Source: a virus. Taken from it: 22,166 bases of DNA. This document shows, one piece after another, positions 1 to 14,223 of the stretch. The notes under the pieces were generated by a model. It searched no databases. It worked only from the letters and a program-made list of their open reading frames with translations, and had not been told where the DNA came from. The stretch lies in UHGV virus genome UHGV-0117806, one strand, 5' to 3'. Positions within the stretch are counted from its first letter, which is position 1. Each line of letters starts with the position of its first letter. The translations under genes were made by a program, and so were the position numbers.

Positions 1-159
1 AAAATCGATACTGGAAAAACTCTAACTCGGTGGCCAGTTTTTGTTGACCACTTCATCTACACTCGCGGCATTGGAAGCAAAGATATGGTCGTCTGGCACC
101 TGATGCACATTGATAAGGCTATCAACCACACGCTGGAGAAGTTCTTTCCACCAGCCTGA
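1..159 (+). CDS. C-terminal fragment of an unidentified protein (gene starts left of the window)
   Basis: Frame 1 is open from base 1 to TGA at 157-159 (52 sense codons ending ...HIDKAINHTLEKFFPPA); no start codon visible in window. Confidence 0.3.
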   Translation, partial: KIDTGKTLTRWPVFVDHFIYTRGIGSKDMVVWHLMHIDKAINHTLEKFFPPA

Positions 160-227
160 ACACAATGATTGTGCGCCTTATAGCGCCCATTAAGATAGAT
201 AAGTACTTACCAACAAGGAAAAAACAC

Positions 228-503
228 ATGAAGACTTTGGTTCGCATTTCATCTAGTACCGACTATGACGTTTACCCGTTGTTCATGATCAAGTGCGACG
301 GGCTGAACGATGAAGAAATTCAAGCGGCAATTGAACGCAATCTAGTTGAATACACAGGAATGGATGCGGATTCTATTTATATCGATGATGACGGTGTTTG
401 TTGGCACAACGGTAGCTGCTGGTACGTTGACGACACAATGCTGGTAAGCGATGAAGACGCGGCCCATCTTGAGCGCATTTTGGGTATCAGCACTTTTAAG
501 TGA
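228..503 (+). CDS. hypothetical protein (91 aa)
   Basis: ATG 228 preceded by AAGGA (216-220); same frame as track ORF 165..503, whose earlier start at 165 has no SD. No recognisable motifs. Confidence 0.55.
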   Translation: MKTLVRISSSTDYDVYPLFMIKCDGLNDEEIQAAIERNLVEYTGMDADSIYIDDDGVCWHNGSCWYVDDTMLVSDEDAAHLERILGISTFK

Positions 504-542
504 TATTTACAGCAAAAATATATAAGTTAGCATTTACCTATC

Positions 543-722
543 ATGAAAATTTCATTAGATATCACGTTACTTATTATCTCGATAGCCTTTGTGCTCGACT
601 GCATCTTCACAGGGGCAATCCGTAAAGCGCTGGCGCCTGTTAATGATGTGATGATCAATGCGCTGGCCGTAGTACTGGTCTTCGACTCAGCATTAGGCGT
701 TTTCAAAGGAGTCGTGGCATGA
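543..722 (+). CDS. small hydrophobic (membrane) peptide, 59 aa
   Basis: Below ORF-track size cutoff. ATG 543; stop TGA 720-722 overlaps ATG 719 of next gene (ATGA coupling). Hydrophobic sequence MKISLDITLLIISIAFVLDCIF... Weak SD. Confidence 0.35.
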   Translation: MKISLDITLLIISIAFVLDCIFTGAIRKALAPVNDVMINALAVVLVFDSALGVFKGVVA

Positions 723-1054
723 AGAAAACAGCCCTGGTACTGGCGCTGCTCACTCTCCCCGTCTTTGCGGACACACATGTCTATGAGTGCGAAATGTTTG
801 TGGTCGAAGCGAAAAACGGCCTGATCCGCAACGTCGTCAAAGCTAATTACGGCGCGATGGTTGTGGACCGCGGCGAACAGTTTTATGTGGTACGCGATAA
901 TCGTGTCCTGTCTTCCCCGTTTCTCACTAAACGTAACGGCGAACTATCTGGCGTAGGTAAAGATAGGTTCGTTTACAACAAATCGGGTGATGTATACGGC
1001 GTTCACGCGAAGAACGACAGCTACCTTTTCGATGACTGCAAGGAGATTAGTTGA
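719..1054 (+). CDS. secreted/periplasmic protein with N-terminal signal peptide (111 aa)
   Basis: AAGGAG 705-710 then ATG 719; N-terminus MKKTALVLALLTLPVFA is signal-peptide-like. Confidence 0.7.
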   Translation: MKKTALVLALLTLPVFADTHVYECEMFVVEAKNGLIRNVVKANYGAMVVDRGEQFYVVRDNRVLSSPFLTKRNGELSGVGKDRFVYNKSGDVYGVHAKNDSYLFDDCKEIS

Positions 1055-1266
1055 TGGCGGTTACACTGACAGGTCTGGAAATCGAAAAAACAAGCGGCTA
1101 CTGGCGTGCCAAAGGGTTCAAGCAGTCCGGCGTACTGGAACGACTGGAACGTGAAGATGGGTATATTGTCCACCAGCGACGTGAATGGCGCATGTACGAT
1201 CCGGAAACAGGTAAGCTCGCAACGAAGGCCGGGACACTCTGGGGTCTGCTGAAGAAAATCCACTGA
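1051..1266 (+). CDS. hypothetical protein (71 aa), coupled to upstream gene
   Basis: ATG 1051 overlaps stop of 719..1054 (ATGA); ORF ends just before the iteron array. Confidence 0.55.
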   Translation: MMAVTLTGLEIEKTSGYWRAKGFKQSGVLERLEREDGYIVHQRREWRMYDPETGKLATKAGTLWGLLKKIH

Positions 1267-1275
1267 TAACACTAT

Positions 1276-1996
1276 CCACTGCGGTGAGTAGCCAGCTCAC
1301 CGCGTGTGAATCCGGCTCATAACCACTGTAGCGAGTAGAACACCCTTCAGGTATGCACCCCAACCACTGTAGTGAGTAGAACACCATTCGGGTATGCACC
1401 CCAACCACTGTAGTGAGTAGAACACCATTCGGGTATGCACCCCAACCACTGTAGTGAGTAAAACACCATTCGGGTATGCACCCCAACCACTGTAGTGAGC
1501 AACCCCCCTGCCACGATATCAACTATCCACTGCAGTGAGTAAATTGGTGATTATCGGGGTCGCTATACACTGTAGTGAGTAAACAGGCGTTCACTGACTA
1601 CAAACAACCACTATAGAGAGTGATGGAATGCCCCCTCCAGCGGATATCCACTATGGAGAGTAAATCTTCGCTGTTTTAAACGGATATCCACTCACTACAG
1701 TGGATAGAGGTCAAGTCAGCCAATTCTGCTCTTCACAGTGGATAGTCAACAATGAGGAGAGCGACGATAACCGCTGTAGAGAGTAGACTTAACAGAGATA
1801 CCCAGTGACCGCTAACCTCTCAGCCCTTGTTTTATCTATGTTTGCAACCACTAACATTTACTTCGCGATTTGTGCGCACTGCCTACAGTGGTTATTCTTC
1901 GGTTTCTTTTACTCACTACAGTGGATATTGCATTTCCGATAAACAAAAAGGCTCACTACAGTAGATAGTGAGCCTTTTTACTCTCTACAGTGGTTG
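1276..1996. repeat. iteron array downstream of repA (about 17 copies of a CCACTGTAGTGAGTA-type core; incA-like control locus)
   Basis: Core copies at 1276, 1323, 1364, 1405, 1446, 1487, 1527, 1567, 1608, 1648, 1771 in direct orientation (1323-1501 are exact 41-bp tandem units); inverted copies (CTCACTACAGTGGATA) at about 1691, 1731, 1880, 1911, 1952, 1982. Confidence 0.85.
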
Positions 1997-1998
1997 GG

Positions 1999-3054
1999 CT
2001 ATTTGCGAGCCTTTGCCTTGCGCAGCTCTTCGAGAATCGCTAGTTCTTCCTTGCTCAACATGACCATTTCCCCGTCTTTTTCTTCAGGGGCAACATCGAT
2101 AATGTCCTCCGGATCATCACCTGGCAAAATATCTTCTGGCTCTTCAGGCGTAGCCATAGATGGCGGCAGTGCCGAACGTAACTTCGGCCGTCTATAGTGG
2201 ATGACGAAGTAGACCGAGCTGCCGCGTTTCACTTCAGTGTAATCGAGATAGCCGATCTCTCGCAGCTGCTCCATCGCCTTCCTGACTGTCGCATTCTGGG
2301 TAATGGTGCGGCTGGTTAAGTTAAGTCTGGCGCGTAAGCGAGCCAATGAGATTGGCGCCGGGTCTGGTGGCAAACTTTCAATGAAGGTGTAGAGCGCCTG
2401 CGCGGATTCTTTTCTGGAGAGTTCGTTGATGGCCCGAAGTTGCAAAAGCACCTTTTTGTCGAACTGGTAAAGTTCGAAAATCTTAGGATCGGCCTTCAGT
2501 TCGACCGTGTCATTCTTGGTACTGTACTTTGCCGTCTGCACAAGGTGCGTAACGTAATACTCTTCAGAGCCTTTGCTGCGGAATGAGATGGTGTTTGTGG
2601 CGATACGACTTAGAGAGCTGTCCAGGCGCTTACGTAACTTCGCGGACGATCTGGCTGTTGGTATGCCACAAAGTCTGACGAACTCGACGAACGGCAACGT
2701 GACGGTGTCACCAACAACCTTGTGCTTGGCGAACGCGTGGATGATGCCCACCCATGTTTTGAAATCGTTATCCATATCAAGACGAAGACCAGCAATCCTT
2801 ATATCCTCGTACCCTTCGGCTTTGGCCAGAGACAGCTGTTTGAGTTCAGCGGAGGCGTCCATAGAGACCATTTGCCCCTTTCTACCCCTGGATGTCGATT
2901 TCAGCGTCGGAACGAAGAGACCAAGACGCATCAGAGCAACAGGCTGAACTGTGTTGTTGGTGTTAGGAACTAACGTAACAACTTCGCCGGTCTTTTTGTC
3001 TGTTTCGGAAAATGCTTCGCTTATCGCAATGTTTTTATTGTCGTTTACGCTCAT
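1999..3054 (-). CDS. repA: iteron-binding replication initiator RepA (RepFIB / phage P1 RepA family)
   Basis: 351-aa ORF with blocks recognisable from RepFIB/P1 RepA ([58 protein letters not shown]); flanked on both sides by iterons. Confidence 0.92.
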
Positions 3055-3097
3055 TCCAAATGTCTCTTTTTATTCGACGGCTTGGGTGCCTTTACTG

Positions 3098-3217
3098 ATT
3101 ACAGTGGATAGTAGCACCCATCACAGTGGTTATCCTACCGCCTACAGCGGTTTTTCTACTCTCCATAGTGGTTGATTTACTCTCTATAGTGGTTGTTATT
3201 CTCACTATAGTGGATAT
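3098..3217. repeat. iteron set 1 upstream of repA (6 copies, TACAGTGG-type orientation)
   Basis: ttACAGTGGATA 3100, tcACAGTGGTTA 3121, CTACAGCGG 3143, CTCCATAGTGG 3160, CTCTATAGTGG 3181, CTCACTATAGTGGATA 3201. Confidence 0.8.
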
Positions 3218-3254
3218 CGATAACCTCTAAAGCCATGTGGCACAACGGTTTGCA

Positions 3255-3335
3255 GGGGCCGGGGATCTCTTTGGGTCTTTGTGGTTCTCTTTGGTTCTAA
3301 CAGGGATCTGAATTACTGGATCGGGCCTGTGTATA
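3255..3335. other. candidate origin module 1 (GGGGATCTCT...TGGATCGGGCCTGTG; 3 GATC sites)
   Basis: GATC at 3264, 3305, 3319 in an AT-rich gene-free stretch between two iteron sets; diverged duplicate of 3636-3712. Confidence 0.45.
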
Positions 3336-3495
3336 AAAATCAGATAATTACAAAATCAGGCATCACTCCCCTTCTGGGGATAATGTGTGATCGAAATAAA
3401 CACGCCGCAACGCAAAATTTACAATATTTCCAAGAATATCAGCCATCTGCCGCAGAAAAACAGGCTCGGAGTTATCCAGTTAAAACATTGTCTCC

Positions 3496-3600
3496 TACTC
3501 ACTACAGTGGATACCGACTACTCTCCAGAGAGGTTGTTTTGCTCTTCATAGCGGTTATTATGCTCTCTACAGTGGTTATTTTGCTCCCTATAGTGGATAG
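3496..3600. repeat. iteron set 2 upstream of repA (5 copies)
   Basis: CTCACTACAGTGGATA 3498, CTCTCCAGAGAGG 3521, CTCTTCATAGCGG 3543, CTCTCTACAGTGG 3563, CTCCCTATAGTGGATAG 3583. Confidence 0.8.
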
Positions 3601-3635
3601 TAACCCCTTCTCAAGCCAGTAACCGCAAGCGCTGG

Positions 3636-3712
3636 AGACGATCGGGGATCTCTTTTGATCTTCTGTAGGATCTCTCTGGGGATCTAAATATTGGATCGGG
3701 CCTGTGAATAAA
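3636..3712. other. candidate origin module 2 (Dam-site cluster: 6 GATC within about 60 bp)
   Basis: GATC at 3640, 3647, 3657, 3669, 3681, 3694, followed by TGGATCGGGCCTGTG as in module 1. This density is far above chance and typical of Dam/SeqA-controlled origins. Confidence 0.5.
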
Positions 3713-3796
3713 GTGAATAAGTAAACAGGCATTTGCAAACTCCGGTGCGCCTTATCCGTTATCGTTGCCCCGGACAAAATTATTTGAACAAGAATT

Positions 3797-4441
3797 ATGG
3801 ATCTTAAACGCACGCGCTGGGTTCGCCGTCTTGAAGATGGCTCCTACACCATTGAATCAAACACTAGTCTGAACAAACAGAAGTTGCTCTGCGACCTTTG
3901 CGGCATTGCTTCGAAATGCCCGATTAACGAAACCCGGCTTAAACTCCACGACGCCGGTGCGCATTTCCACCTAAACAGCTGCATACGTTACGTGCCACTA
4001 CTAGCATTTCGTAAACCGATCATCGGATTGGATGCTCCCTACTTCAACACACTGCGCTCTGGTGTCACTTGGCGAGATCGTGTCGAACCTGGCAAACTCG
4101 TTTGTCTGGTTGAAGCTGATACCGGAAATATCATCCGGTTCGGGAGAGTTGATAAGGTCTACTCAGGGCCGGTGGATGAAATGCTGCGGAAACACAGCCG
4201 ATTTAACCATCTCTGCATGGGCGGAGAGAAGATTGAGAAGGTTGGCGAAGTAATTCGCAAATCTTACGGACACTTTCTGAATGATAACAGCCTTCTGACA
4301 GCCATTTACATTCGCCATGTCGATCGGGAGTTCGACACGGAGTATCACAGTGTTGAAGAGTTGAATCTTGTAGACCCTCGTCCAAAAGCTGGGGTAATAG
4401 ACATCAGCAGAGCGCGTCAGAAGCCCTCAGAGACGTTTTAA
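3797..4441 (+). CDS. hypothetical protein (214 aa)
   Basis: Long ORF with ATG 3797 (no clear SD); no family recognised. Confidence 0.6.
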   Translation: MDLKRTRWVRRLEDGSYTIESNTSLNKQKLLCDLCGIASKCPINETRLKLHDAGAHFHLNSCIRYVPLLAFRKPIIGLDAPYFNTLRSGVTWRDRVEPGKLVCLVEADTGNIIRFGRVDKVYSGPVDEMLRKHSRFNHLCMGGEKIEKVGEVIRKSYGHFLNDNSLLTAIYIRHVDREFDTEYHSVEELNLVDPRPKAGVIDISRARQKPSETF

Positions 4442-4837
4442 AGGCAAACTCATGCTTTTTACCGGGCATAAAATATGGTGTCTTAGAAAGACACTGAGAG
4501 CTTTAGGGATTAATGCATGAGTGAATTTTATTCAAGAGCAGAAACTGTGGCCGACGGATGCGTTTGAAGACGACGCACGCAAACGCCGTAAATGTCATCT
4601 CACAACTTCACCGTCCGTTCTCCTTTTTCATTTCTTGTCATCAGTAAATGACTGCTCTCATAAAATTGCTTGTGACGTTTAGAAATCGTTGCTGCTCTAT
4701 CTGATAAGTATTTACTTACTTATTTTTTTATCATTATCATGTACCTTTATATTCTTTTGTATGCCGTTTTGTATGGGTTGTACGCCTCTTATGCACGCTT
4801 AGAATTTGTATCAAAATAACCACAAAGGAAAAGACAC

Positions 4838-5268
4838 ATGACATTGCCATACGGGGTAATATCAGATCCCCATTATCATCGTTGGGATGCTTTTGCGACA
4901 ACCCGCCCTACTCCAAAATCACCCCCTGGATAGACGCAGCCATTCGCGAGCAGGCGCGTGGAGTGACGACGGTCATGCTGATACCACAATCCCTCGATAC
5001 GCAGTGGTACGAGCGTGCGGCTGAATGCGCCAACGAAACCGTCATCTTGTCTGGCGGCCGCGTGGCGTTCGTTGAGCCGGATGTTGAACTTGGGCTGGTG
5101 GAGGTGAACATCAACCCTGGTGGCAGCATGTTGCTTATCTTCCGTGGCTACTGTCAGGAAGCTGGGCACACCATCAGCAAGATACCGCTGGCGGTGATGA
5201 AAAAGCTGGGTGGTTATGATCCTGCCAATGTTGTCAGGAAGAAGAGACCACGTAAAAAGGCAGCGTAA
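4838..5268 (+). pseudogene. phage-type N6-adenine DNA methyltransferase (small Dam family), apparently frameshifted/N-terminally truncated
   Basis: Good start (AAGGAA 4825-4830, ATG 4838) opens frame 2 and stops after about 31 codons. The DNPPY catalytic motif and the rest of the domain (…DNPPYSKITPWIDAAIRE…GGRVAFVEPD…) are in frame 1 (track ORF 4882..5268, TTG start, no SD). Confidence 0.5.
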
Positions 5269-5470
5269 ACACCAGTCTGGGAGTTAGTTTGAGAACCTGC
5301 TTCCGTATATATAAATAACTAAGTACTAATTATTAATATATACAGACGCAGGCTTTTTAAGACGTTATTTCCAAACAACTCCCAGACCGTTTTACACCTC
5401 CAGAACCCACTGGAACCCCTCTTCAGACGCTCTAGAATCGATTTTATGAACCACAGTAAGGAAAACTATC

Positions 5471-5701
5471 ATGGTATACCCGACGAACGTCGTAGCGCTC
5501 GTTGAGAGCGATTTTCTGGCCACAGTGCGCGACATGATGAAAGATCGCGATAAGGCTTTCAGTCTCTACGAATGGTCGCTCAGATGTCTTCATTCAGGCG
5601 AGCACAAAGAGCTGGTGGAACAGCTGTTAGGGGAACTCATCAATGAGGTGTTTGCCCTGAACGTCCAGCTTCATGGGCGAGAAATTAATCAATCAATATA
5701 A
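5471..5701 (+). CDS. hypothetical protein (76 aa)
   Basis: AAGGA 5458-5462 then ATG 5471; no family recognised. Confidence 0.6.
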   Translation: MVYPTNVVALVESDFLATVRDMMKDRDKAFSLYEWSLRCLHSGEHKELVEQLLGELINEVFALNVQLHGREINQSI

Positions 5702-6294
5702 TAGGTAAGTACTTACCATTCAAAACGCCACTAACCAGTGATACAATCTATCCGCTTCCGGATACTTTCGGCAGCTCGACCTGATGGGTGGGGGATAGCG
5801 TCACTGGCGTCAGGTTTAAAAAAGCTCACTACCAGCGTAGAACCGGCACCGTTTAGGGGTTGGGGAAGGGGGAACCAAAGTGGGCAGAGAGAAGGGTCAC
5901 TTTATGATTGTCGAGTCTGGAGTGTTTCGAGAGGTTGAATCCAGTACTCCCCTTCATAAAGTGTGGGAAGATCTCGGTTCTGGGGTGCTGTCATCCATAA
6001 CTTCCCAAGCCTAAGCTGGCAGTAGACTTAGGTCATAACTTTTCAGGTTATGAAACGACCAGGTTGGTGAGGAAATTTTGTACTCACCTCACTGGGAGAG
6101 TATTACTTGAAAAGACAACCTCTCACTTCGTTCGAGGTGAACTTCACTCACTTCGTTCGTTCAGTTCAGGTTTTATTAAAACCTGTTCTGGGAAGTAATT
6201 TTTCTTTTCTAAAAAATTTTTAATATTTACACGCACGCGTGCGCACACGCGCGAGGGAAAAAAAATCGTCGCGGCGCGCGATTCTGGAGCCAAA

Positions 6295-6903
6295 ATGACG
6301 ACCAAGAACCCAGTCCGGCAACGCACTGGCTGCCGCACGAAGTCTAAAGCCAGATGCCAAACCCACCAGCATTCCTGTACCAATTTCAACACACCCGTAG
6401 TCGAGTTCAATCCCCAGCTCAAAACCGTAAAAGTATTCAGTGATGGCTCCTGCCTCAAAAATCCGGGCGGGCCGGGCGGTTACGGTATCGTTCTCCAGTA
6501 TCGAGGCGAAGAGCGCGAGCTTTCTGAGGGCTTCCACAGCACGACCAACAATCGGATGGAGATGATGGGCGCCCTGATTGCGCTGGAGCGTCTGAAGTAC
6601 CCCTGCAACGTGATCCTGCATTCCGACAGCCAGTATCTTAAAAACGGCATGACGCTCTGGATGAAAGGCTGGAAGCGTAACGGATGGATCACGTCTGAGA
6701 AGAAGCCAGTCAAAAACGTGGATCTCTGGAAACGTCTCGACGTGGCCGCCAGTCGTCATAATGTCCGCTGGAAGTGGGTTAAAGGCCATGCAGGTCATCG
6801 CGAGAACGAAATGTGTGACCGTCTGGCGAAGATCGCCGCCTATTCCGCAGCTGATATGCCTCACAAGCATGACATTGGGTTTTTGTCACAAAAGTATAAG
6901 TAA
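6295..6903 (+). CDS. rnhA: ribonuclease HI with about 45-aa N-terminal extension
   Basis: RNase HI catalytic-core motifs in canonical order: [40 protein letters not shown] 6286-6289 then ATG 6295; no alternative in-frame start before the core. Confidence 0.85.
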
Positions 6904-6995
6904 GTATTTACCTACTATAATAAATCAGGTATCTTATAAATCGTCAGGATGACGAAGTACCGGTTAGGTACGGTTCCAGGATGGAACGCCAAAAG

Positions 6996-7026
6996 GCGGC
7001 TGGCTTGGCCAGCCGCAACTCTTTCT
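6996..7026 (+). terminator. hairpin terminator after rnhA
   Basis: GCGGCTGGC-ttg-GCCAGCCGC (6996-7016) followed by CTCTTTCT. Confidence 0.5.
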
Positions 7027-7045
7027 GACACTGAATGGAATCCAC

Positions 7046-7546
7046 ATGGCCCGTCAAACGTCTTTCACTTCTTTCAATAAACGTCCCCGTTCAATTCGCC
7101 TGGTGCTGACCGAGCTGTTTAGTGGTCGTGTTTCCGCACGCCTTACGGAACTGGAAGAACGAGTGTTTGAACTGGAGAAGCGCATTAATGTGCAAGCTAC
7201 CGCCATAGCTAATCAGGGCACGACAGTAGGCATGGAGAAGGTGCGTAATAGCGTCGCTTCTCGTGTGTTGCGTGAAACCCGGACACACAAGAACAGTTCT
7301 CATGGAAAATTTTCAACGAAATCGACTGAAGTCAATGGCCTACGGAGTGATTTTGGCAACTCTGGCAGCGGTTACCGTACCAGCCGGTCAGAGCCTTTTG
7401 ATGCCGGGCACAACTACTTCCACTGCCACCACAGCCTTGCAGATGACACCCCTGCCCGAACGACCTCCTGTCTCTCTGGATGGGATGCTGATGGACACGA
7501 TTCCAGCTCGACCTGCGACTCCGGATCTTCCTTCTACAGTGACTGA
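7046..7546 (+). CDS. hypothetical protein; only the first ~70 codons look protein-like
   Basis: ATG 7046 with weak SD; N-terminal part is coiled-coil-like (LTELEERVFELEKRINVQ). From about 7260 this frame becomes Ser/Gly-rich and overlaps 7302..7559 in another frame. Confidence 0.25.
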   Translation: MARQTSFTSFNKRPRSIRLVLTELFSGRVSARLTELEERVFELEKRINVQATAIANQGTTVGMEKVRNSVASRVLRETRTHKNSSHGKFSTKSTEVNGLRSDFGNSGSGYRTSRSEPFDAGHNYFHCHHSLADDTPARTTSCLSGWDADGHDSSSTCDSGSSFYSD

Positions 7547-7559
7547 GGCTATTGTATGA
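7302..7559 (+). CDS. hypothetical Thr/Pro-rich protein with hydrophobic N-terminal segment (85 aa)
   Basis: ATG 7302 (MENFQRNRLKSMAYGVILATLAAVTVPAG…); stop overlaps ATG 7556 of next gene (ATGA). Start uncertain. Confidence 0.4.
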   Translation: MENFQRNRLKSMAYGVILATLAAVTVPAGQSLLMPGTTTSTATTALQMTPLPERPPVSLDGMLMDTIPARPATPDLPSTVTEAIV

Positions 7560-7744
7560 AATGGAACTTCCAGAAATTCACCTTGATGATTGTTGGCTTT
7601 ACCGTTTTTTTGTTTAACGGCTGGATCATGAATCTGGTGAAACTTGTGAACGATGGCGATCTCCAGTCTCATGCCGGAGTGACACTTGCGCGTGTCGTGG
7701 GAGTTTTCATTGTTCCAGTGGGCGGCATCCTCGGGTTCTTTTAA
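7556..7744 (+). CDS. small membrane protein (62 aa)
   Basis: ATG 7556 coupled to upstream ORF; two hydrophobic segments (FTLMIVGFTVFLF, VVGVFIVPVGGILGFF). Confidence 0.5.
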   Translation: MKWNFQKFTLMIVGFTVFLFNGWIMNLVKLVNDGDLQSHAGVTLARVVGVFIVPVGGILGFF

Positions 7745-7779
7745 CCGACGAATAGGGGGGGGCATTAGCCCCTCAATCT

Positions 7780-8739
7780 TCACTCCGGCGCATCCAGCCA
7801 ATTATTAATGGCGTCTATTATTAAGTGTATATCTTCATGGTGATACAGATAAACGTCCAGTTTTTTGGCTGCTTGTCTGGCGTGAGGGGTAAACTCGCTG
7901 TTGCTGACTACTATTGCGAGGGAGCAATCGTAGAACTGTTTCGCGGAAAATGCTTCCTGAATAGCTTTGTTGCCTACTTTAGACTGGTAGTGTTTGCACT
8001 GAACAGCCATTCGAACTTCTCTATAGGTTACAAGGATATCCAGACCGTGATCGCCGCTGCCCTTAGTTACTTGGGTGTCGGATCCATACTTCATAAACTC
8101 CCCAGCGACAAAATGCTCATATTCGTGCCCGGTCAGTAGCGAAGTGTACTCAGGTAATTCAGGTTCTGGTGTATTGTCTACCACCGTCATAATGTGATTT
8201 ATTGCGCAGCGATCAAATTGTTCAGGCAACTGGAATTTAAAGTAAACTGGCCGCCCCCAGGCATTCTTGTCCTCCGACTCTGCCAACCAAAGGTTGTTGA
8301 GCCGGCCTGTGTTCTCTTCGATCCAATCGTAAACTTTCTCTTTTACTACCTTGTCATAAAAGTAGTCTACTTCATCAAACCACTTGTCAAAGTTCCAGAC
8401 CCCGTATTCATCCTGTGTTGTGAGTGTTTTTTCTTTTCTTTTCAAAGTGGTGAGATGCATTTCATAGAACTGAGGTAAAACTTTTATGAGTAGGTATGAA
8501 GTGAAGGCGCTTTGAATAAGCTTCTCTTTGGCTGACTTATAGTAAAAATCGTTACGATCGAACGCGCCGTTTTGCGTGATGTAGCTTCTAACTTCCATAT
8601 TTCGAAAAATGATATTGCGTGTTTTTTCCCATGCTTCATGTAGATCATTTTCAGCAACGAAGCTCATGACTTTCTGATAATGAGACTCCAAGCCCTCCCG
8701 GGCCTTAGTTTCTTCCGTTTTGAAAAGATTACCAAACAT
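7780..8739 (-). CDS. Mrr-like PD-(D/E)xK restriction-endonuclease-fold protein with unrecognised ~200-aa N-terminal domain
   Basis: C-terminal ~110 aa match the Mrr_cat pattern: GHEYEHFVAGEF…GSGDHGLDILV…VQCKHY…AIVVSNSEFTPHARQAA. N-terminal domain has no motif I recognise. Convergent with 7046-7744. Confidence 0.85.
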   Translation of the reverse strand: MFGNLFKTEETKAREGLESHYQKVMSFVAENDLHEAWEKTRNIIFRNMEVRSYITQNGAFDRNDFYYKSAKEKLIQSAFTSYLLIKVLPQFYEMHLTTLKRKEKTLTTQDEYGVWNFDKWFDEVDYFYDKVVKEKVYDWIEENTGRLNNLWLAESEDKNAWGRPVYFKFQLPEQFDRCAINHIMTVVDNTPEPELPEYTSLLTGHEYEHFVAGEFMKYGSDTQVTKGSGDHGLDILVTYREVRMAVQCKHYQSKVGNKAIQEAFSAKQFYDCSLAIVVSNSEFTPHARQAAKKLDVYLYHHEDIHLIIDAINNWLDAPE

Positions 8740-8912
8740 TTTGCTCTCTCTTAGGGACTGACGTCTGAATAGAACTTCGGCAATGAGAACATTCTGCTAT
8801 GAATGCCACTTTAAATAAATGTCTGGTATGCCTGATTTTTCCTTTTGCGTGTCTTTTCGCCTTAATGCAACTCTTCACATCATCATAGAATTTGAGACAA
8901 TTAAACAATTAA

Positions 8913-8930
8913 GAAAACAACTTGTTTAAA
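8913..8930 (+). promoter_or_regulatory. palindromic operator-like motif (AAAACAA-C-TTGTTTAAA) 18 nt upstream of ATG 8948
   Basis: Member of the recurring AAAACAA-N(1-3)-TTGTTT family (see findings). Confidence 0.5.
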
Positions 8931-8947
8931 AGAATAAGGAAGAGCGC

Positions 8948-9526
8948 ATGTGTGAAAAATGCAAAAAAACTAATGCCAAAGTTGAAAGCGTGATTAAAAA
9001 AGTTGGTGCGGCCGAACTGGTTGAGATCATGGGTCTTGTGGTTGGTCACGAAGACGACGCCTCCCCTATTGACCGCCTTTTCAGCGTTCTCAAGTTCTCA
9101 AGCATGATTGATGATCCGATTGAAATTGTGATGCTGGCGCGTCATTTCGGCGAAGCGTATCTGGAAGAGAAAGAACGCGCCGACAAACTTAAGGCAACTC
9201 TGGAAATGGTAAGCAAGCCGAAGTGCTCACCGGATTCAGTCAAGGCAGATGAAACCAACGCCAGCAAAGATCGTGAAATCGCCGGGCTGAAGTCTTCTCT
9301 GGCGATGTTGCTGGCCGCTTTCAAACTGATGTCTTCCCAGGCTGGGTTCAAAATGCCTGAGCTGAACAGCGACGATCCGATGGCCCTTCGCCAGCTGTTG
9401 GGGGCAATGGCCGACCAGCTTGACGACACCAAGAGCCGTCTTGAAGACATGATGCGCGAGCTGACCCATCGCCACGACCTGAACAAACAGCCGCAGCCGC
9501 AAAAGATGCAGCCTTTACATCATTAA
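8948..9526 (+). CDS. hypothetical protein (192 aa)
   Basis: AAGGAAG then ATG 8948; preceded by the palindrome motif; followed by hairpin GGGGC-aaa-GCCCC (9534-9546). Confidence 0.7.
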   Translation: MCEKCKKTNAKVESVIKKVGAAELVEIMGLVVGHEDDASPIDRLFSVLKFSSMIDDPIEIVMLARHFGEAYLEEKERADKLKATLEMVSKPKCSPDSVKADETNASKDREIAGLKSSLAMLLAAFKLMSSQAGFKMPELNSDDPMALRQLLGAMADQLDDTKSRLEDMMRELTHRHDLNKQPQPQKMQPLHH

Positions 9527-9551
9527 TATATATGGGGCAAAGCCCCCTACT

Positions 9552-9971
9552 CTACTTTGCGGCGTCTAACAATAAGCCGCAATTTTCGCTCATGTATGCC
9601 GCAGTTGCCGGATTGCCTCTGTCATTATTCGAATTGTTCATTTCAGGGTGAGCGTCCCAGGCCACTGATTCCTGAGATGATAGATAGACGGCAAAGTCGA
9701 CGATTTCATCATCTCCGGTTTTAACGTTGCCAAGCAATTCATTTGCCTTTCTCCAGTGCTTCAGCGCGAGAATTCTGAACTGTTTTGCATTTTCAGCAGG
9801 CACTGCACTGGATTTGTCTGTGTAGATATTCGATATGTCGGCATAAAGAGCGCATTTAACATAGCTGGTTGCCCTGCCGGTCTCTTTAAAACCTTGCTCT
9901 GTGTTGTTGGCGTAGACATTCACAGCAAAAGCGCTGGCAATTCCCAGCAATATAATTTTCTTCATCATCAT
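9552..9971 (-). CDS. secreted protein with signal peptide (139 aa)
   Basis: N-terminus MMMKKIILLGIASAFAVNVYA is signal-peptide-like; no SD seen and exact start among three ATGs is uncertain. Confidence 0.55.
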   Translation of the reverse strand: MMMKKIILLGIASAFAVNVYANNTEQGFKETGRATSYVKCALYADISNIYTDKSSAVPAENAKQFRILALKHWRKANELLGNVKTGDDEIVDFAVYLSSQESVAWDAHPEMNNSNNDRGNPATAAYMSENCGLLLDAAK

Positions 9972-10096
9972 TACTCAATAAGGAGGCGACAAATATCTTA
10001 CGTGTAGTTGTCAGTTGAGTATTAAGCAAACTCAATAAACTTATAAGTATCTCCCTGTGCAGCTTGTGAATCCTTATTTATTACCTACTCAATTTT

Positions 10097-10130
10097 GAAA
10101 TAATAACACCAACAAAAAAACAATTTGTTT
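10097..10130 (+). promoter_or_regulatory. conserved promoter-operator module (TGaAATAAT extended -10-like box + AAACAATTTGTTT palindrome 10118-10130)
   Basis: gaaATAATAACACCAACAAaaAAACAATTTGTTT, 12 nt upstream of ATG 10143. Confidence 0.55.
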
Positions 10131-10142
10131 AATGGTGCAATC

Positions 10143-11828
10143 ATGAATACAGCCCTTTCCATCATTGACGCTATCACTCCAAACACTGATATCGACTACC
10201 GGCAGGAAATGAACGTTATCCACGAAATTGTGGCCGAGTGCGAGAAAGAGATCGCATTCATGCATCAGGTTCACGACTTCGTTTATGGCGACGAACGCCA
10301 CAGCATGATTAACCGCCTGCTGCGACTCAACCACCGGCCGGATGACGAGCGCACACGCTTTAACAGAGCCTGGTTGGACAAAGTCGACCTGGAATGGGTG
10401 AAACAGAACATCTGGGCTGAATACTGGAAGAAGGTCACGGATATGACCAACGTTCTGCTGATCATGCCAGCATCCCGCCGCGACGAGTGGCGTGAACAGT
10501 TTATCGAGGGCAAGCAGGAAACGATCAAGACTGACAGAACTGGCTATCAAATGAAGGTTAAAGAGTTCGTTGGTGTACCTGAGTTCAAAGCAGAAACGGT
10601 CATACCAACGATGCTTAATTTGCTGAATGACAGGCACAAATATCTCTCTGAGCGCGTGTATGGCTTGTTTAAGGCGTTGAGTCCTGCTCACAAGACCAAT
10701 AAGACGAACGGCTTCAGCGAGCGTCTGATCATCGCCGACTGCATTTCCGATTTCTGGCGGGACAGCGTCAGCGTTAACTACCGGAAAGAGGATTACATAG
10801 ACGACCTGCGCGTCATGTTGCATTTCTTTGCACACAAAGAATTTATCACCATCAACCGCACGGCCGAGATGCTGTCAGCTGCGTATCGAGCAAATGACTG
10901 CCAGACCGGCGACTGGATGAATGTCGACGGAAACCTGATGCGTGTGAAGATGTTTAAGAACGGCAACGTTCACTTTGAAATACATCCTGACGTAGCCTGG
11001 AAGCTGAATGAGGTGCTGGCTTACAGTATGCCTGCAGCAATCCCGGCGCCATGCCGTACTGCACCCAAAACACGGGCACCAAAAGAGTTCGGGTTAATCC
11101 AGAAGACGATCTCCGAGCCGGTTCGTACCGCGCTGCGCAACGGGCGATTCAGCAAAGATAAAGGCGTCTGGTACTTCTCTGATTCCAACCTCCAGAAGTC
11201 GCAGGTGGAAGAGCTTGAGCGCACACTGAACTTCATTGGCGGCGTGCAGGAGAAAAGGCACTGGCAGTTCCCGTATGAGATCGGCCATACGCTCAATACG
11301 ATTGTGGCCACCGGCTTAATACCGGATACAAAATCACACCAGTTCTACCCTACCCCGCGTTTGATAGCGGAGTACGTTGCCAGAGCCATCGAGCTGAAGC
11401 AAGGTGAGAAGCTGCTGGAGCCTGAAGCCGGGCGCGGAGATCTGCTGGCCTGCATCGACGCCAATCCGGAAGACGTTACCTGCATAGAAGTCGCACCTCT
11501 CTTCGCTGATATCCTGCTTGGCAAGGGGTACACAAATACGGTCTGCTGCGACTTCATGAAGTGGTCTGAGGTCAACGCAGGTTATCAGTTCGACAAAATC
11601 GTTATGAACCCGTCCTACTCTCTTGACCGTCACAGAGAGCATACGCTGGCCGCGCTGGAGCATCTTAAAGTCGGCGGGCGACTGGTGGCTGTATTGCCGG
11701 GTGATGCGCCAGTTCTGAACTGGATGTCGCTGGATAATTACGTTTATGCCAAAGGGAAGTCGTTTACTGACGAGTTTGAAGACACCGGAATCACTGTCAG
11801 CGTATACGTTTTCAAACGTGTAAAATGA
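10143..11828 (+). CDS. putative orphan DNA amino-methyltransferase with ~380-aa unrecognised N-terminal region (561 aa)
   Basis: C-terminal motifs in gamma-class order: FYPTP (motif X), LEPEAGRGDLL (motif I, SAM-binding), VCCDF, IVMNPSYS (motif IV variant NPSY). ATG 10143 in frame with track ORF 10125..11828. Confidence 0.8.
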   Translation: MNTALSIIDAITPNTDIDYRQEMNVIHEIVAECEKEIAFMHQVHDFVYGDERHSMINRLLRLNHRPDDERTRFNRAWLDKVDLEWVKQNIWAEYWKKVTDMTNVLLIMPASRRDEWREQFIEGKQETIKTDRTGYQMKVKEFVGVPEFKAETVIPTMLNLLNDRHKYLSERVYGLFKALSPAHKTNKTNGFSERLIIADCISDFWRDSVSVNYRKEDYIDDLRVMLHFFAHKEFITINRTAEMLSAAYRANDCQTGDWMNVDGNLMRVKMFKNGNVHFEIHPDVAWKLNEVLAYSMPAAIPAPCRTAPKTRAPKEFGLIQKTISEPVRTALRNGRFSKDKGVWYFSDSNLQKSQVEELERTLNFIGGVQEKRHWQFPYEIGHTLNTIVATGLIPDTKSHQFYPTPRLIAEYVARAIELKQGEKLLEPEAGRGDLLACIDANPEDVTCIEVAPLFADILLGKGYTNTVCCDFMKWSEVNAGYQFDKIVMNPSYSLDRHREHTLAALEHLKVGGRLVAVLPGDAPVLNWMSLDNYVYAKGKSFTDEFEDTGITVSVYVFKRVK

Positions 11829-11886
11829 TAGGTAAATACTTACCTAATTTATGTAAGAATAGAGCCACTTTATCAGAGGTAAACAC

Positions 11887-12576
11887 ATGAGCGAAAAATC
11901 GAGAATTACATTCGCCAGCGTTGATCAGGCGAAGCTGCCATTTAATTTAGTGCTACAGGGGAATGCAGGCGCGCCTGCCGGAACCATCAAAATCGACAAG
12001 GAGCTTGTGACGTTCGAAGGTAACTTTGATGAATCGGCGCAGGTTTTTATCGACCATCTGGCACGCCGTTGGAGCCAGCAGTGGAGAGACCTTGAGAAAT
12101 GCGCCAATGAGTTTGACCGGTTCATGGACGCAATGGACACAGCAAAAGAGGCTCTGGCTGCCGGCACTCCGTTAGATTTGGAGTCTCTGTTTAAAGGTGA
12201 AATGGCCTCTGCGATGTTCGCAACCATGTTTGCCGGTGAGTTTGTTCGTAGCGGGGCCAGAAACTACCTGGAGCTGGAGTACGACGTTCCTGAAATGGGT
12301 GAGTTTACCGTCACCATTCAACGCAAAGAAGGTAAGACTCCTGGCGAACGTATCGCTGAACTTGAGGCCGTTGTGGATCAGCGTAACGGCGAGTGCGTCC
12401 GTTTGATTAATGAACGTGATGCGCTGCGCGAAGAGCAGCTAAACAAAGGCTCGAACACACGCGCGGCCGCAGACATCTACTTCCAGTTGGTTGAGGAATG
12501 CCAGATCCCGCCAGGTGGCTCTTTGGTCGAGTTCGTTCGCGAATTGCAGGAGAAAGCAGAGAGGTGCGCGGCATGA
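11887..12576 (+). CDS. hypothetical protein (229 aa)
   Basis: ATG 11887, 58 nt after the methyltransferase stop; intergenic near-palindrome AGGTAAATACTTACCT (11830-11845). Confidence 0.7.
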   Translation: MSEKSRITFASVDQAKLPFNLVLQGNAGAPAGTIKIDKELVTFEGNFDESAQVFIDHLARRWSQQWRDLEKCANEFDRFMDAMDTAKEALAAGTPLDLESLFKGEMASAMFATMFAGEFVRSGARNYLELEYDVPEMGEFTVTIQRKEGKTPGERIAELEAVVDQRNGECVRLINERDALREEQLNKGSNTRAAADIYFQLVEECQIPPGGSLVEFVRELQEKAERCAA

Positions 12577-12812
12577 ATGATCTGCTTGTCGAGCGAGTCT
12601 CCGCTTTTGTTAAGTCCCCGCTGAATAATCCCCTCACCCGCGGTGAGCAGATGGAGCTGGCAAGGTGGTTTCTGCGTATCCATGAGCAGATGGAAGTTTT
12701 TAAACAGTTGCCGGATCTGCCCATTACAGACGGCCAAATTCAGTGTGCCACTTCAGTACGGTCGACGATGACAACGACGCAAACCTGCTTTTCGTCAAAT
12801 CCGAAATCATAA
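12573..12812 (+). CDS. hypothetical small protein (79 aa)
   Basis: ATG 12573 overlaps stop of 11887..12576 (ATGA). C-terminal ~20 residues look low-complexity, so a frameshift or shorter product is possible. Confidence 0.45.
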   Translation: MNDLLVERVSAFVKSPLNNPLTRGEQMELARWFLRIHEQMEVFKQLPDLPITDGQIQCATSVRSTMTTTQTCFSSNPKS

Positions 12813-12858
12813 AGTTGCCCAGGGAGAGAGAGAAATCGACGCAGAGCAGGCCCGCAAT

Positions 12859-13074
12859 ATGTGGGACGAGGCAGAAAACGCTGATGACGTAAAAGAAAGT
12901 TGCTGCTGTTTCGGTGTCGGTAACGAACTGCTGAGTCTGTTTGGTGACGATCCGTGGTATGCCGGTTGGCCAACAGTGCCAAACCCCAGATACCAATACC
13001 TAGAACGTATCATGAACGCGGTACGTGATGGGCTGAAAGAGCTTCACAATCAGATGAGAGAAGCAATTGGTTAA
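12859..13074 (+). CDS. hypothetical small protein (71 aa)
   Basis: ATG 12859 with weak SD; frame is open upstream to 12772 without an alternative start. Confidence 0.4.
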   Translation: MWDEAENADDVKESCCCFGVGNELLSLFGDDPWYAGWPTVPNPRYQYLERIMNAVRDGLKELHNQMREAIG

Positions 13075-13112
13075 GTGCTATAGTCAGGCGCTTTTATATT
13101 TATGGAGTGAAT

Positions 13113-13811: not shown

Positions 13812-13818
13812 GCCAGAT

Positions 13819-13840
13819 AAGGCCACTAGTTGTGGCCTTA
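13819..13840. terminator. bidirectional hairpin AAGGCCAC-tagtt-GTGGCCTT
   Basis: Sits between convergent genes 13113..13811 (+) and 13867..14070 (-); immediately followed by palindrome AAACAATTTGTTT (13840-13852). Confidence 0.55.
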
Positions 13841-13866
13841 AACAATTTGTTTTATAGATGGTGAAA

Positions 13867-14070
13867 TTAATAGAACCCCAGGCGAACCAAATCCATTGGG
13901 CAGAATAGACCTTCCACACCTTCGATAGACACGCAGTCAGAGCGGCGTAATTGTTCTTCTGATTTGCCTTCTCCGCAGATTTCCTTGATGACTCCCGTTG
14001 CACCATTCGTTGCCACCATCACTCGGCTGCCGGTAGTGATAGCGTTACGGTTGCGATCATAGGTCTTCAT
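13867..14070 (-). CDS. hypothetical small protein (67 aa)
   Basis: Strong SD on minus strand (AAGGAGG, 5 nt before ATG at 14070). Confidence 0.65.
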
Positions 14071-14169: not shown

Positions 14170-14223
14170 CACCATCTTGTTATTCAATTAACCCGTAAAG
14201 TTGACCAGTACCGTAATAAATAA

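Follow-up and report, generated by a model that had tools for sequence, protein, structure and literature searches.

In the enterobacterial phage-plasmid P1, a single immunity repressor, the 283-aa C1, acts on operators dispersed over a genome of ~100 kb, at the promoters of lytic units and at the repressor gene itself. These operators are asymmetric 17-mers ("monovalent" in the annotation), several of which are clustered at c1/coi, and the late genes are controlled indirectly via Lpa. In the CI-Cro switch of lambdoid phages and 434, the operators form two clusters of 2-3 sites next to divergent genes for an XRE protein of ~130 aa and Cro. Plasmid RK2 carries 12 dispersed OB palindromes for the global repressor KorB at variable distances from promoters, and the dispersed centromere repeats of SopB are found in N15. 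In phage L5 and other Cluster A phages, more than 20 sites for the repressor gp71, located at promoters and in short gaps within operons, are proposed to stop both initiation and elongation, by which the entire prophage would be silenced (PMC9283540). The late promoters of P1 are thought to be served by Lpa through AAGTnACTT near position -22, which is followed by a -10 hexamer without a -35 (PMC10695390). T1-like phages (T1 and Stevie) contain a 22-bp intergenic repeat in 16-20 copies, which its authors compared with stoperators (PMC4319613).

The SSU5-type phage-plasmid family includes pHCM2 of Salmonella Typhi and pMT1 of Yersinia pestis. Its members are common in Klebsiella, E. coli, Salmonella, Enterobacter, and Yersinia, and family marker genes were present in ~800-1000 plasmid records; resistance genes can be carried by these elements. 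The control of lysis and lysogeny in SSU5-like phage-plasmids is essentially undescribed, and the reviews and papers searched contained no operator, promoter, or regulon for the SSU5 group. The palindrome analyzed here had no description in the searchable literature.

Results

Seven copies of a palindrome in the window

Alignment to SSU5 revealed that the window, which is the whole stretch of 22,166 nucleotides under analysis, was a segment of an SSU5-like phage-plasmid with a 14.6-kb deletion at ~4900. Gene positions were taken from the annotation of a 99.7%-identical plasmid together with homology to SSU5. The ORF 1999-3054, which appears as an IS transposase in plasmid annotations, was ruled out as such, and its homology identified it as RepA. 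The 14-mer GGTAAGTACTTACC, embedded in the full consensus aATA-GGTAAGTACTTACC-TATcAT, was present in seven copies (Table 1). Matches to the 14-mer were compared with 100 shuffles, and the window was also scanned with a position-weight matrix at a score threshold. With up to three mismatches to the 14-mer, there were 7 matches against 0.39 expected, and none of the shuffles reached 7. The matrix gave 8 raw matches, equal to 7 distinct sites, compared with 0.45 in shuffles. Exact AAGTACTT was found in only three of the copies (0.29 expected by chance). A further match at 21333 fell below the matrix threshold and was probably due to chance.

Table 1. Positions of the palindrome copies and of the promoter adjoining copy 4 in the window
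Feature	Extent	Core or sequence	Strand	Matrix score	Group or remark
Palindrome copy 1	195-214	198-211, GATAAGTACTTACC, 1 mismatch	.	26.3	
Palindrome copy 2	522-541	525-538, AGTTAGCATTTACC	.	20.0	G14
Palindrome copy 3	4703-4723	overlapping registers 4703-4716 and 4707-4720	.	15.7 and 20.1	
Palindrome copy 4	5701-5720	5704-5717, perfect GGTAAGTACTTACC	.	28.5	G19
Sigma-70 promoter (predicted)	5719-5747	TTCAAA-17-TACAAT	+		conserved, adjoins copy 4
Palindrome copy 5	6896-6915	6899-6912, AGTAAGTATTTACC	.	25.5	G20
Palindrome copy 6	11828-11847	11831-11844, GGTAAATACTTACC	.	29.4	G21
Palindrome copy 7	18622-18641	18625-18638, TGTAAGTACTTACT	.	18.3	G22

Six of these copies had been listed in a sequence-only reading of the window, and all six were found to exist after small corrections of coordinates, for example from 4703 to the better register at 4707. 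The copy at 525-538 had been missed and was added by the matrix scan. The copy described as a perfect 14-bp palindrome at 5705-5718 was indeed perfect, but its actual position was one nucleotide to the left. The intergenic placement noted there also held, as all seven copies were located between genes or over a stop codon.

Between copy 1 and the start codon of the SSU5_065 homolog (ATG at 228) there were 16 nt; the copy directly preceded the ribosome-binding site of this gene, and no -10-like hexamer was found downstream of the copy. Its orthologs were at SSU5 57749, Cyrano 59075, and pJN2-26 104674, and the site was also present in pMT1. Copy 2 was centered on TAGCAT, the -10 hexamer of a conserved promoter (TTTACA-16-TAGCAT/TAGTAT, 506-533), a layout that was the same in SSU5, Cyrano, and pJN2-26, with the site also found in pMT1. 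The next ATG (543) was only 4 nt past the core of copy 2, and the mRNA may therefore be leaderless. For copy 3, the register 4703-4716 had three mismatches, whereas 4707-4720 (AGTATTTACTTACT) was better and was the ortholog of SSU5 63083 upstream of sbcD; window 4607-4902 aligned with SSU5 62982-63279. A promoter-like pair, TTTACT-18-TATCAT (4711-4740), overlapped this copy.

Copy 4 began 3 nt past the stop codon of ORF 5471-5701 and ended 1 nt before the -35 of the promoter that had been reported to follow it, which was present as described; its center is therefore at approximately -44. The hexamers of this predicted promoter were kept in place in four genomes (TTTAAA/TAAAAT, TTTATA/TAAGAT, and TTTACG/TAGAAT as variants) while the spacer diverged, and it would drive a conserved structured region at ~5748-5900. 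Copy 5 overlapped the RNase H stop codon (gene at 6295-6903), with the next gene (7046) 133 nt further on. Copy 6 began 3 nt past the stop of the gene for a DUF4942 methyltransferase (10143-11828), 42 nt before the next ATG (11887). Copy 7 was immediately preceded by an intrinsic terminator (ccttcggggctttttt), and the ATG at 18680 was 41 nt downstream. The TTGTAA-17-TAAAAT pair that had been described as following copy 7 was present (18624-18652), but it overlapped the palindrome, the left half of which held the -35. In four genomes, the -10 of this conserved promoter kept a constant offset, with the sequences TAATAT, TAGAAT, TAGTAT, and TAAAAT.

Distribution over the replicon and the family

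Whole genomes of SSU5-like elements contained ~25-26 copies. The expectation that the sites would be enriched between genes over the complete replicon was borne out in SSU5, where 24 of the 26 sites were located in intergenic DNA, which makes up 11.6% of the genome (binomial P = 8.6e-21). The Klebsiella plasmid pJN2-26 had 26 sites compared with 1.2 in shuffles. The positions were orthologous in SSU5, Cyrano, and pJN2-26, and also in pHCM2 and pMT1, and the sites were sorted into 23 orthologous groups (G1, G2, and so on). Copies occurred among replication, nucleotide-metabolism, accessory, structural, and lysis genes, including positions upstream of the portal, tail, tail-fibre, and holin genes, and approximately one quarter of the intergenic gaps contained a copy. 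An intragenic copy in a cobT-like gene, ~1.1-1.3 kb downstream of the repressor region in SSU5, pHCM2, pMT1, and pJN2-26, resembles an auxiliary operator.

All stretches of IMG/VR with more than one copy of the conserved 20-bp dyad were SSU5-like, with two exceptions due to chance. These were the non-SSU5 loci L058 and L114, whose several matrix matches proved on inspection to be chance, as did single exact 14-mer matches in unrelated IMG/VR contigs. The repeat of T1 and Stevie is likewise mostly intergenic and present in many copies, in a siphovirus with many terminators, but it is asymmetric, lies in one orientation, has an unrelated sequence, and belongs to virulent phages.

Dispersed repeats of this kind could be recombination linkers or cassette boundaries that were spread by module exchange and have no regulatory role. 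Some sites did flank variable accessory modules, such as the stretch from 6899 to 11831, in which gene content differed among relatives. However, the site frequency was equal in the invariant structural and replication modules, and the 14.6-kb deletion, the one large rearrangement of the window, had no palindrome at its end. With the conservation described below also against it, such a by-product is scarcely credible.

Conservation and symmetry of the sites

Footprints were compared over 21 orthologous gaps of SSU5, Cyrano, and pJN2-26. The mean pairwise identity was 0.85 over the 20-mer and 0.50-0.54 in the flanks, and the arms of the palindrome were more conserved than its center. Judged by these alignments, the sites are under purifying selection relative to the flanks. 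The dyad was symmetric out to ~26 bp, rather than an asymmetric, oriented site of the L5 type. The L5 stoperators resemble the present sites in number, intergenic placement, and presence in both early and late operons. They are 13-bp, asymmetric, orientation-dependent sites for a two-domain monomer, whereas the sites here are symmetric and presumably bound by a dimer, and the elongation block proposed for L5 has only a putative counterpart here.

A palindrome of this length could also act in RNA, as an intercistronic hairpin of 8-9 bp with a GUAC loop that serves as a processing site, a stabilizer, or a translational operator for an RNA-binding protein of the phage. Many copies were in polycistronic units, where they directly followed stop codons or preceded a ribosome-binding site by 2-6 nt; the consensus was altered symmetrically between the enterobacterial and Acinetobacter versions, and the SSU5 copy at 27477 carried symmetric double changes. 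A symmetric change of the consensus is, however, equally expected for the half-sites of a dimer. Among 149 unique sites, the core pairs showed no excess of complementarity over column shuffles (z -1.5 to +0.9), and inner pairs were mismatched without compensation in 26-34% of the unique sites. Since non-consensus bases were uncompensated across the dyad, the arms behaved as two half-sites rather than as an RNA stem. The putative loop was the sequence-conserved part in enterobacteria, divergent promoter regions held some of the copies, one copy covered the start site at the repressor promoter, and neither the Rfam nor the tRNA scan of the window gave a match. An RNA-level element is thus highly improbable. 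The outer pairs showed a modest excess of complementarity, which was confounded by shared ancestry and was left unused.

Relation to sigma-70 promoters

Conserved hexamers of predicted sigma-70 promoters were overlapped or abutted by the palindrome in ~7 of the 23 orthologous groups (G2, G7, G12, G14, G16, G19, and G22). The palindrome covered the -10 in G14 (window 525) and the -35 in G22 (window 18625), filled the 17-bp spacer in G2 and G12 (TTGAAA-17-TATGAT/TATCAT) and in G16 (TTGATA-17-TAACAT), and abutted the -35 in G19 (window 5704) and in G7, at the holin gene. Approximately two thirds of the copies had no convincing sigma-70 promoter alongside. The conserved -10 was inside the palindrome in G14 and followed it by 3 nt in G2 and G12, 8 nt in G22, and ~23 nt in G7 and G19; no fixed -10 or -35 register was found across the groups. 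Such a variable register is tolerated by a repressor, but normally not by a promoter element or an activator box. Some copies cannot serve the next gene as promoters because they were only 16-20 nt before start codons (window 198; G1, G17, and G18) or, in G3 and G16, because a terminator directly followed. The TATnAT flank was mirrored equally on the upstream side and is therefore part of the dyad, and it was not conserved in the Acinetobacter version.

These geometries bear on a second reading, in which the palindrome serves as a box for an activator at phage-specific lytic or late promoters, after the model of Lpa in P1, and recruits RNA polymerase to the adjacent TATnAT after this phage activator has been produced. 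The half-sites AAGT/ACTT are common to both systems, the core AAGTACTT being followed by ACC and then TATcAT, and in many copies a TAnnnT hexamer stood a few bases downstream. The -35 position was usually merely A-rich, and the portal, tail, tail-fibre, and holin genes have upstream copies. The activator could be, for example, the 88-aa SSU5_130, which shows at least 87% conservation within the family and is encoded just upstream of terS, the position of lpa relative to pacA; in Pfam, PHROGs, and NCBIfam, it matched only a PHROG of unknown function. The annotated late promoters of P1, however, read AAGT(G/T)ACTT-N4-TAnnnT, a 9-bp box with a central base at a fixed 4 nt from the -10 (9 nt in LPhot) and without a -35, whereas an 8-bp core was set here in a 20-bp dyad, at a register that varied from inside the palindrome to ~23 nt after it, and with a good -35 at several copies. 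A start ~12 nt downstream would fall within the ribosome-binding site at the copies close to start codons (window 198; G1, G17, and G18) and would directly precede the terminator in G3 and G16. The mirrored flank, which the Acinetobacter version does not conserve, and the copy that covers the start site at the repressor's own promoter also argue against an activator box. No homolog of Lpa (PF25716) was found by tblastn (best E = 0.7), and an HMM of 42 family members gave a best E of 2.7 in SSU5, Cyrano, pJN2-26, and the window, compared with 2.6e-85 for the P1 control. Taken together, an Lpa-like box is unlikely. The SSU5-like genomes did contain true AAGTnACTT boxes, but these were confined to the apex of a separate long hairpin element.

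A candidate repressor and its co-variation with the sites

The CYRAN_45 family consists of 128-aa proteins encoded beside the integrase and divergent from a small cro-like gene. In Pfam, PHROGs, and NCBIfam, CYRAN_45 matched only the XRE helix-turn-helix, without an S24 peptidase domain, and the cro-like protein had no family match; a PDB sequence search with the repressor revealed no relative. In five lineages (Cyrano, pHCM2, pMT1, pJN2-26, and one metagenomic contig), the promoter of the XRE gene consisted of TTTACA, a divergent 16-nt spacer, TAATAT, 1 nt, the palindrome, and 23-33 nt before the ATG. The palindrome thus covered the predicted start site of the gene's own promoter, the classical position of an autoregulatory operator, which implies autoregulation. 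In an LF82 lysogen, the repressor was transcribed 10-fold above background while most Cyrano genes were silent (PMC9928086).

This arrangement is similar to that of lambdoid phages and 434, in which a protein of comparable size is also encoded next to the integrase and a dyad of 14-20 bp, less conserved in its center than in its arms, also sits on the repressor's own promoter. It differs from them in the missing S24 domain and in having essentially one site in the switch region and ~25 elsewhere. As in P1, one repressor would act on dispersed sites at lytic-unit promoters and at its own gene. The XRE protein is unrelated to C1, and the site is a 20-bp dyad that is found upstream of structural and lysis genes as well.

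The Acinetobacter relatives carried a co-varied dyad, AGTCAnnnnTGACT, in 13 copies in 40 kb compared with 1.8 expected. Three of these clustered in a 600-bp regulatory region upstream of the repressor homolog, which repeats the P1 layout of a cluster at the repressor with single dispersed sites. The homolog had 38-48% identity and an altered recognition helix (KRPNVLSMIK against KNANNLSLIK); the helix-turn-helix was conserved where the motif was conserved and altered where it was altered. The repressor alleles of E. coli and Klebsiella were only 56% identical with an unchanged motif, which can be reconciled only because conservation is concentrated in the helix-turn-helix. The K. variicola plasmid CP133154 carried the same motif, and this poorly assembled and annotated record was left out of the co-variation comparison. 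Phage SSU5 itself had perfect sites without the XRE module; this loss is explicable as a recent deletion and adds no support for the repressor reading.

Other DNA-binding candidates co-occurred with the motif equally, namely SSU5_130 and the ParB_N proteins SSU5_125/126. The sites could accordingly belong to a ParB/KorB-like global regulator or form a dispersed centromere, with SSU5_125/126 binding the dyads and coordinating repression, segregation, or both. These two proteins contain the ParB N-terminal domain (Pfam ParB_N) and were present in all motif-bearing lineages, including phage SSU5 and the Acinetobacter relatives (39% identity), and the divergent promoter region that immediately precedes their operon contained a copy (group G23). 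A short palindrome present about a dozen times, at variable promoter distances and with global repression, is typical of KorB on RK2, and SSU5-like elements likewise encode ParB-family proteins. However, the sequences are unrelated, and Pfam detected in SSU5_125/126 only ParB_N, without a helix-turn-helix or KorB domain. The G23 copy was among the weakest (score 12.6), and, with so many of the intergenic gaps holding a copy, the presence of one near a particular gene carries no significance. The best-placed copy was at the XRE gene and not at a par operon, and its tight, conserved placement on that promoter would be left unexplained. Plasmid partition is more plausibly performed by the ParA-like SSU5_033 locus, and a role of the sites as ParB/KorB-type targets appeared distinctly unlikely.

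Discussion

The palindrome is probably an operator bound by a phage-encoded dimeric transcription factor, which would exert negative control over the lytic units of SSU5-like phage-plasmids. The sequence-only reading had proposed a second operator class, and its interpretation as a protein-binding site gained support from the conserved dyad, the orthologous gaps, the uncompensated arms, the overlap with sigma-70 promoters, and the copy at the repressor promoter. The sites themselves were shown to exist, and their number, placement, conservation, co-variation, and overlap with conserved promoter hexamers were established; from these, we infer the binding of a protein, its repressive effect, and the identity of the binder, with the direction of regulation read from geometry. 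A bound dimer would cover the -10, the -35, the spacer, or the upstream edge of a host-type sigma-70 promoter and so block initiation. The most likely binder would be the XRE-family helix-turn-helix repressor next to the integrase, which would autoregulate through the copy over its own predicted start site. Most likely, one phage repressor would keep the whole virus silent through its ~25 sites.

Since about two thirds of the copies lacked a convincing sigma-70 promoter, a pure operator model needs an added assumption, namely that copies without an adjoining promoter would be auxiliary sites or roadblocks to read-through transcription. A stronger form of the operator reading, put forward here only tentatively, is that a small XRE dimer silences a phage-plasmid of ~100 kb through symmetric sites, many of which act as elongation roadblocks or looping anchors, as a dyad-symmetric Gram-negative counterpart of the stoperators. 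Further observations count against the operator reading. The ATnATA/TATnAT flanks resemble -10 hexamers, with an upstream -35 region that is usually only A-rich, which leaves some weight on the activator reading. The promoter next to copy 5704 serves a region with expression in Cyrano lysogens, although Cyrano's own copy at this position is degenerate.

Multi-operator phage regulons are already known from P1 and L5, and there is no new principle here. With a 20-bp site, a map of ~25 positions, and a candidate repressor with its putatively autoregulated promoter, binding, immunity, and induction become open to direct experiment. As a sequence tag, the site also makes it simple to mark lytic transcription units and to tell lineage-specific immunity types apart (enterobacterial GGTAAGTACTTACC versus Acinetobacter AGTCAnnnnTGACT). 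If the stoperator-like network is real, it would be common to pHCM2, pMT1, and the resistance-carrying phage-plasmids of Klebsiella and E. coli, and one repressor/operator pair would define immunity across the enterobacterial members of a clinically important family.

Palindrome copies in the window

Over 4900-21489 the window was 90% identical to Salmonella phage SSU5; its identity to E. coli plasmids was 96-99.7%. Gene positions were taken from SSU5 and from plasmid pLR-62-2_1, which was 99.7% identical to the window. A finer comparison placed window 55-4902 at SSU5 57.6-63.28 kb, the RepA region. Since this RepA segment was joined at ~4900 to SSU5 77.9 kb, the window was a segment of an SSU5-like phage-plasmid with a 14.6-kb deletion (SSU5 63.28-77.9 kb, including sbcCD, nrdAB, thyX, dhfr, an exonuclease gene and others). 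At the junction the 5' end of sbcD was fused to the 3' part of a dam-like methyltransferase gene (ORF 4882-5268), and this phage-plasmid is probably defective or reduced.

All six palindrome copies named in a sequence-only reading were present in the window, as were both of its promoter-like pairs; its perfect 14-mer stood at 5704-5717 and not at 5705-5718. The exact sequence AAGTACTT occurred three times (0.29 expected), and the 14-mer with up to three mismatches occurred seven times (0.39 expected), a count that 0 of 100 shuffles reached. A matrix scan, with the best sites in three genomes as its basis, added the copy at 525 and dropped a weak match at 21333. Two registers overlapped at 4703, and 4707-4720 was chosen because it was orthologous to SSU5 63083. 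The proposed intergenic placement held for all seven copies, which lay between genes or across a stop codon. The stretches 12000-18600 and 19000-22166, which carry small accessory genes (SSU5 equivalents 84.2-93.2 kb and 93.2-99.8 kb), contained no copies; the other motif family of that reading, AAAACAA/TTGTTT, had been placed there.

Distribution and conservation in SSU5-like elements

The complete SSU5 genome contained 17 occurrences of the 14-mer with up to three mismatches and 26 distinct matrix sites, spread from 2 kb to 99.8 kb. These sites stood before or between the portal, capsid, tail, tail-fibre and holin genes, and also those for helicase/primase, ligase, SSB, recombinase, nrdA, thyX, dam, RNase H and accessory functions. 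The proposal of a second operator class had been staked on intergenic enrichment across the genome, and such enrichment was seen in SSU5, with 24 of the 26 sites in the non-coding 11.6% of the genome (P = 8.6e-21). E. coli phage-plasmid Cyrano carried ~27 sites and Klebsiella plasmid pJN2-26 carried 26 (1.2 in shuffles), and the three genomes shared 21-23 intergenic positions. Sites were also found in pHCM2 of S. Typhi and pMT1 of Y. pestis, and in IMG/VR more than one copy occurred only in SSU5-like stretches, except for two inspected cases judged to be chance. In 21 orthologous gaps the 20-mer had a mean pairwise identity of 0.85 and its flanks one of 0.50-0.54, and the arms (0.86-0.92) were better conserved than the centre (0.74). 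The full consensus was aATA-GGTAAGTACTTACC-TATcAT, with symmetry reaching ~26 bp (26-bp form, ATGATAGGTAAGTACTTACCTATCAT).

Register of the palindrome relative to promoters

When orthologous regions were aligned with the palindrome as anchor, sigma-70 hexamers stayed fixed in place while the neighbouring sequence diverged, and their register relative to the palindrome varied from site to site. At window 198 and in G1, G17 and G18 the palindrome could hardly serve as the promoter of the next gene, because a start ~12 nt downstream would lie inside the ribosome-binding site. The copies at window 190-215 and SSU5 2030-2050 counted as promoter-less. A terminator hairpin directly followed the palindrome in G3 (after the capsid gene) and G16 (before nrdA), and judged by this layout these copies, too, could hardly drive the gene that follows. 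A variable register, together with copies where no promoter is needed, reads as repressor-site behaviour, from which promoter elements and activator boxes normally differ.

Palindrome sites and neighbouring elements (G1-G23, orthologous groups of sites across SSU5, Cyrano and pJN2-26)
Feature	Position	Arrangement
Copy; also G1, G17, G18	window 198	palindrome 16-20 nt from start codon
G14	window 525-538	conserved TTTACA, 16 nt, then TAGCAT/TAGTAT as palindrome centre; ATG 4 nt after palindrome
Copy	window 4707-4720	
G19	window 5704-5717	palindrome end abuts -35 region
Copy	window 6899	
Copy	window 11831	
G22	window 18625	left arm is -35 TTGTAA; -10 at equal offset in four genomes (TAAAAT, TAATAT, TAGAAT, TAGTAT)
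G2, G12		palindrome occupies 17-bp spacer of TTGAAA-17-TATGAT/TATCAT
G16		palindrome occupies spacer of TTGATA-17-TAACAT
G7 (holin site)		palindrome end abuts -35 region
Conserved stretch (G20)	window 6913-7045	downstream of palindrome 6899; tatcttaNNNcgtcaggatgacgaagtaccggttaggtac..., potential hairpin; retained in SSU5, Cyrano and pJN2-26
Candidate small RNA	window ~5748-5900	directly after promoter 5719-5747; just upstream of CYRAN_81 of Cyrano, with slight overlap
Imperfect palindrome, ~85 nt	window 5275-5358	GAACCTGCTTCCGTATATATAAATAACTAAGTACTAATTATTAATATATACAGACGCAGGCTTTTT; RNA fold -23.9 kcal/mol
Other copies of the ~85-nt palindrome	SSU5 33451-33520, 103242-103299 into 1-25; pJN2-26 38528-38609, ~74867; Cyrano record end	apex CTAAGTnACTTAT
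Direct repeats, A. baumannii plasmid NZ_CP155459.1	19604-19660, within 19360-19980	upstream of XRE gene; three TAAAC(T/G/A)GTTAATTTT, 14-28 bp apart

The candidate small RNA behind copy 5704 was G-rich, its identity was 95-100% in relatives from E. coli and Salmonella and ~90% in Klebsiella, and the hexamers of its promoter were kept in four genomes. RNAalifold gave 37 pairs, five of them with compensatory changes, and Rfam gave no match for this region. In lysogens CYRAN_81 was expressed 12-fold above background. The RNA is possibly analogous to P1 c4, since an antirepressor gene lies ~2 kb downstream in SSU5.

Protein-binding site, RNA hairpin or activator box

A role of the palindrome itself at the RNA level found no positive support. 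Among 149 unique sites, complementarity of the core pairs did not exceed that of column shuffles (z -1.5 to +0.9), ~26-34% had an uncompensated mismatch at inner pairs, and Rfam returned no match. Copies also lay in divergent promoter regions (pJN2-26 346, the helicase/ParB_N gap and the repressor/cro-like gap). Two half-sites that degenerate independently point to a dimeric DNA-binding protein, and the palindrome is very probably a regulatory DNA site bound by protein.

The late promoters of P1 contain a 9-bp inverted repeat taken as the site of the activator Lpa (PMC10695390), and the P1 annotation gives their sequence as AAGT(G/T)ACTT-N4-TAnnnT. A similar activator box was a serious rival because its half-sites were identical to those of the palindrome. 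However, the palindrome core was 8 bp instead of 9 bp, its distance to the -10 varied, and several copies had -35 hexamers. The TATnAT flank was mirrored upstream and was thus part of the dyad, and neither tblastn nor an HMM built from the family detected an Lpa homolog. An Lpa-like box therefore failed on its own defining features, and we consider it unlikely even when a non-homologous activator or some dual use is included. The ~85-nt palindrome was present in 2-3 copies per genome, one always just upstream of terS, and its apex outside the window was the exact P1 Lpa-box consensus AAGTnACTT. The GenBank records of SSU5 and Cyrano start and stop within this element, which might function as a terminator, in packaging or as an end site, or as a genuine late promoter of the Lpa type.

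The XRE repressor as candidate binder

CYRAN_45 of Cyrano encodes a 128-aa protein with an XRE helix-turn-helix (Pfam) and adjoins the integrase gene; its pHCM2 counterpart is WP_000224608. In the LF82 lysogen its transcripts were 10-fold above background while most Cyrano genes were silent (PMC9928086). Homologs occurred in ~1000 plasmids of ~100-115 kb from Klebsiella, Escherichia, Enterobacter, Yersinia, Salmonella and Acinetobacter. A comparison of Cyrano, pHCM2, pMT1, pJN2-26 and one metagenomic contig showed that the gene was preceded by TTTACA, a 16-nt lineage-variable spacer, TAATAT, one base, the palindrome, and 23-33 nt before the ATG. Such fixed hexamers around a changing spacer are the footprint of a promoter, and the palindrome would cover its predicted start point, the textbook autoregulatory position. 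Another conserved copy lay inside a cobT-like gene 1.1-1.3 kb from the repressor region.

Between E. coli, Salmonella/Yersinia and Klebsiella, repressor alleles were 56-66% identical overall and had the helix-turn-helix in common (YKNANNLSLIKSG / YKNPNILSLIKKG); the palindrome was likewise unchanged. In Acinetobacter phage-plasmids that shared this gene order, the homolog had 38-48% identity and an altered recognition helix (FKRPNVLSMIKSG). Their dyad, ATC-AGTCAnnnnTGACT-GAT, was related to the enterobacterial consensus but set apart from it by three symmetric changes. This dyad occurred 13 times in 40 kb (1.8 expected), with three of the 13 copies inside the 600 bp of regulatory DNA that precede the repressor gene. 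The co-variation supports the link to the XRE protein but falls short of proof, because all proteins of the Acinetobacter lineage have diverged. Among the other candidate binders, the ParB_N proteins SSU5_125/126 had Acinetobacter counterparts at 39% identity, and the 88-aa SSU5_130 was detected in Enterobacterales only. The direct repeats upstream of the Acinetobacter XRE gene look like iterons or a second class of binding site.

The integrase-repressor-cro-like module of pHCM2 was wholly absent from SSU5, which consequently keeps the sites without the repressor gene. Compared with pHCM2, a ~6.9-kb segment (phoH, grxA, integrase, XRE repressor and cro-like genes) was missing at SSU5 ~41.8-42.7 kb. 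The absence of the module agrees with the isolation of SSU5 as a plaque-forming phage, and SSU5, which is the group's type phage, may descend from a plasmid prophage resembling pHCM2 and have lost its repressor.

Proposed mechanism and significance

We propose that the palindrome serves a dimeric phage repressor as a dispersed operator. Among the candidates the XRE protein is the most probable repressor, an assignment that is itself tentative. A negative action of this kind is favoured, with less assurance than protein binding as such. The repressor would block initiation at sites overlapping promoters, and the remaining sites could be auxiliary or looping sites, or roadblocks against read-through; the last is a putative role suggested by the L5 stoperators (PMC9283540). 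Full-text searches returned no description of the motif sequence or of SSU5 operators, promoters or repressors. Multi-operator phage regulons are a kind of system already known from P1 and L5. The proposed regulon would add an example from a clinically relevant, little-studied family, and its interest would be greater if the roadblock reading were true.
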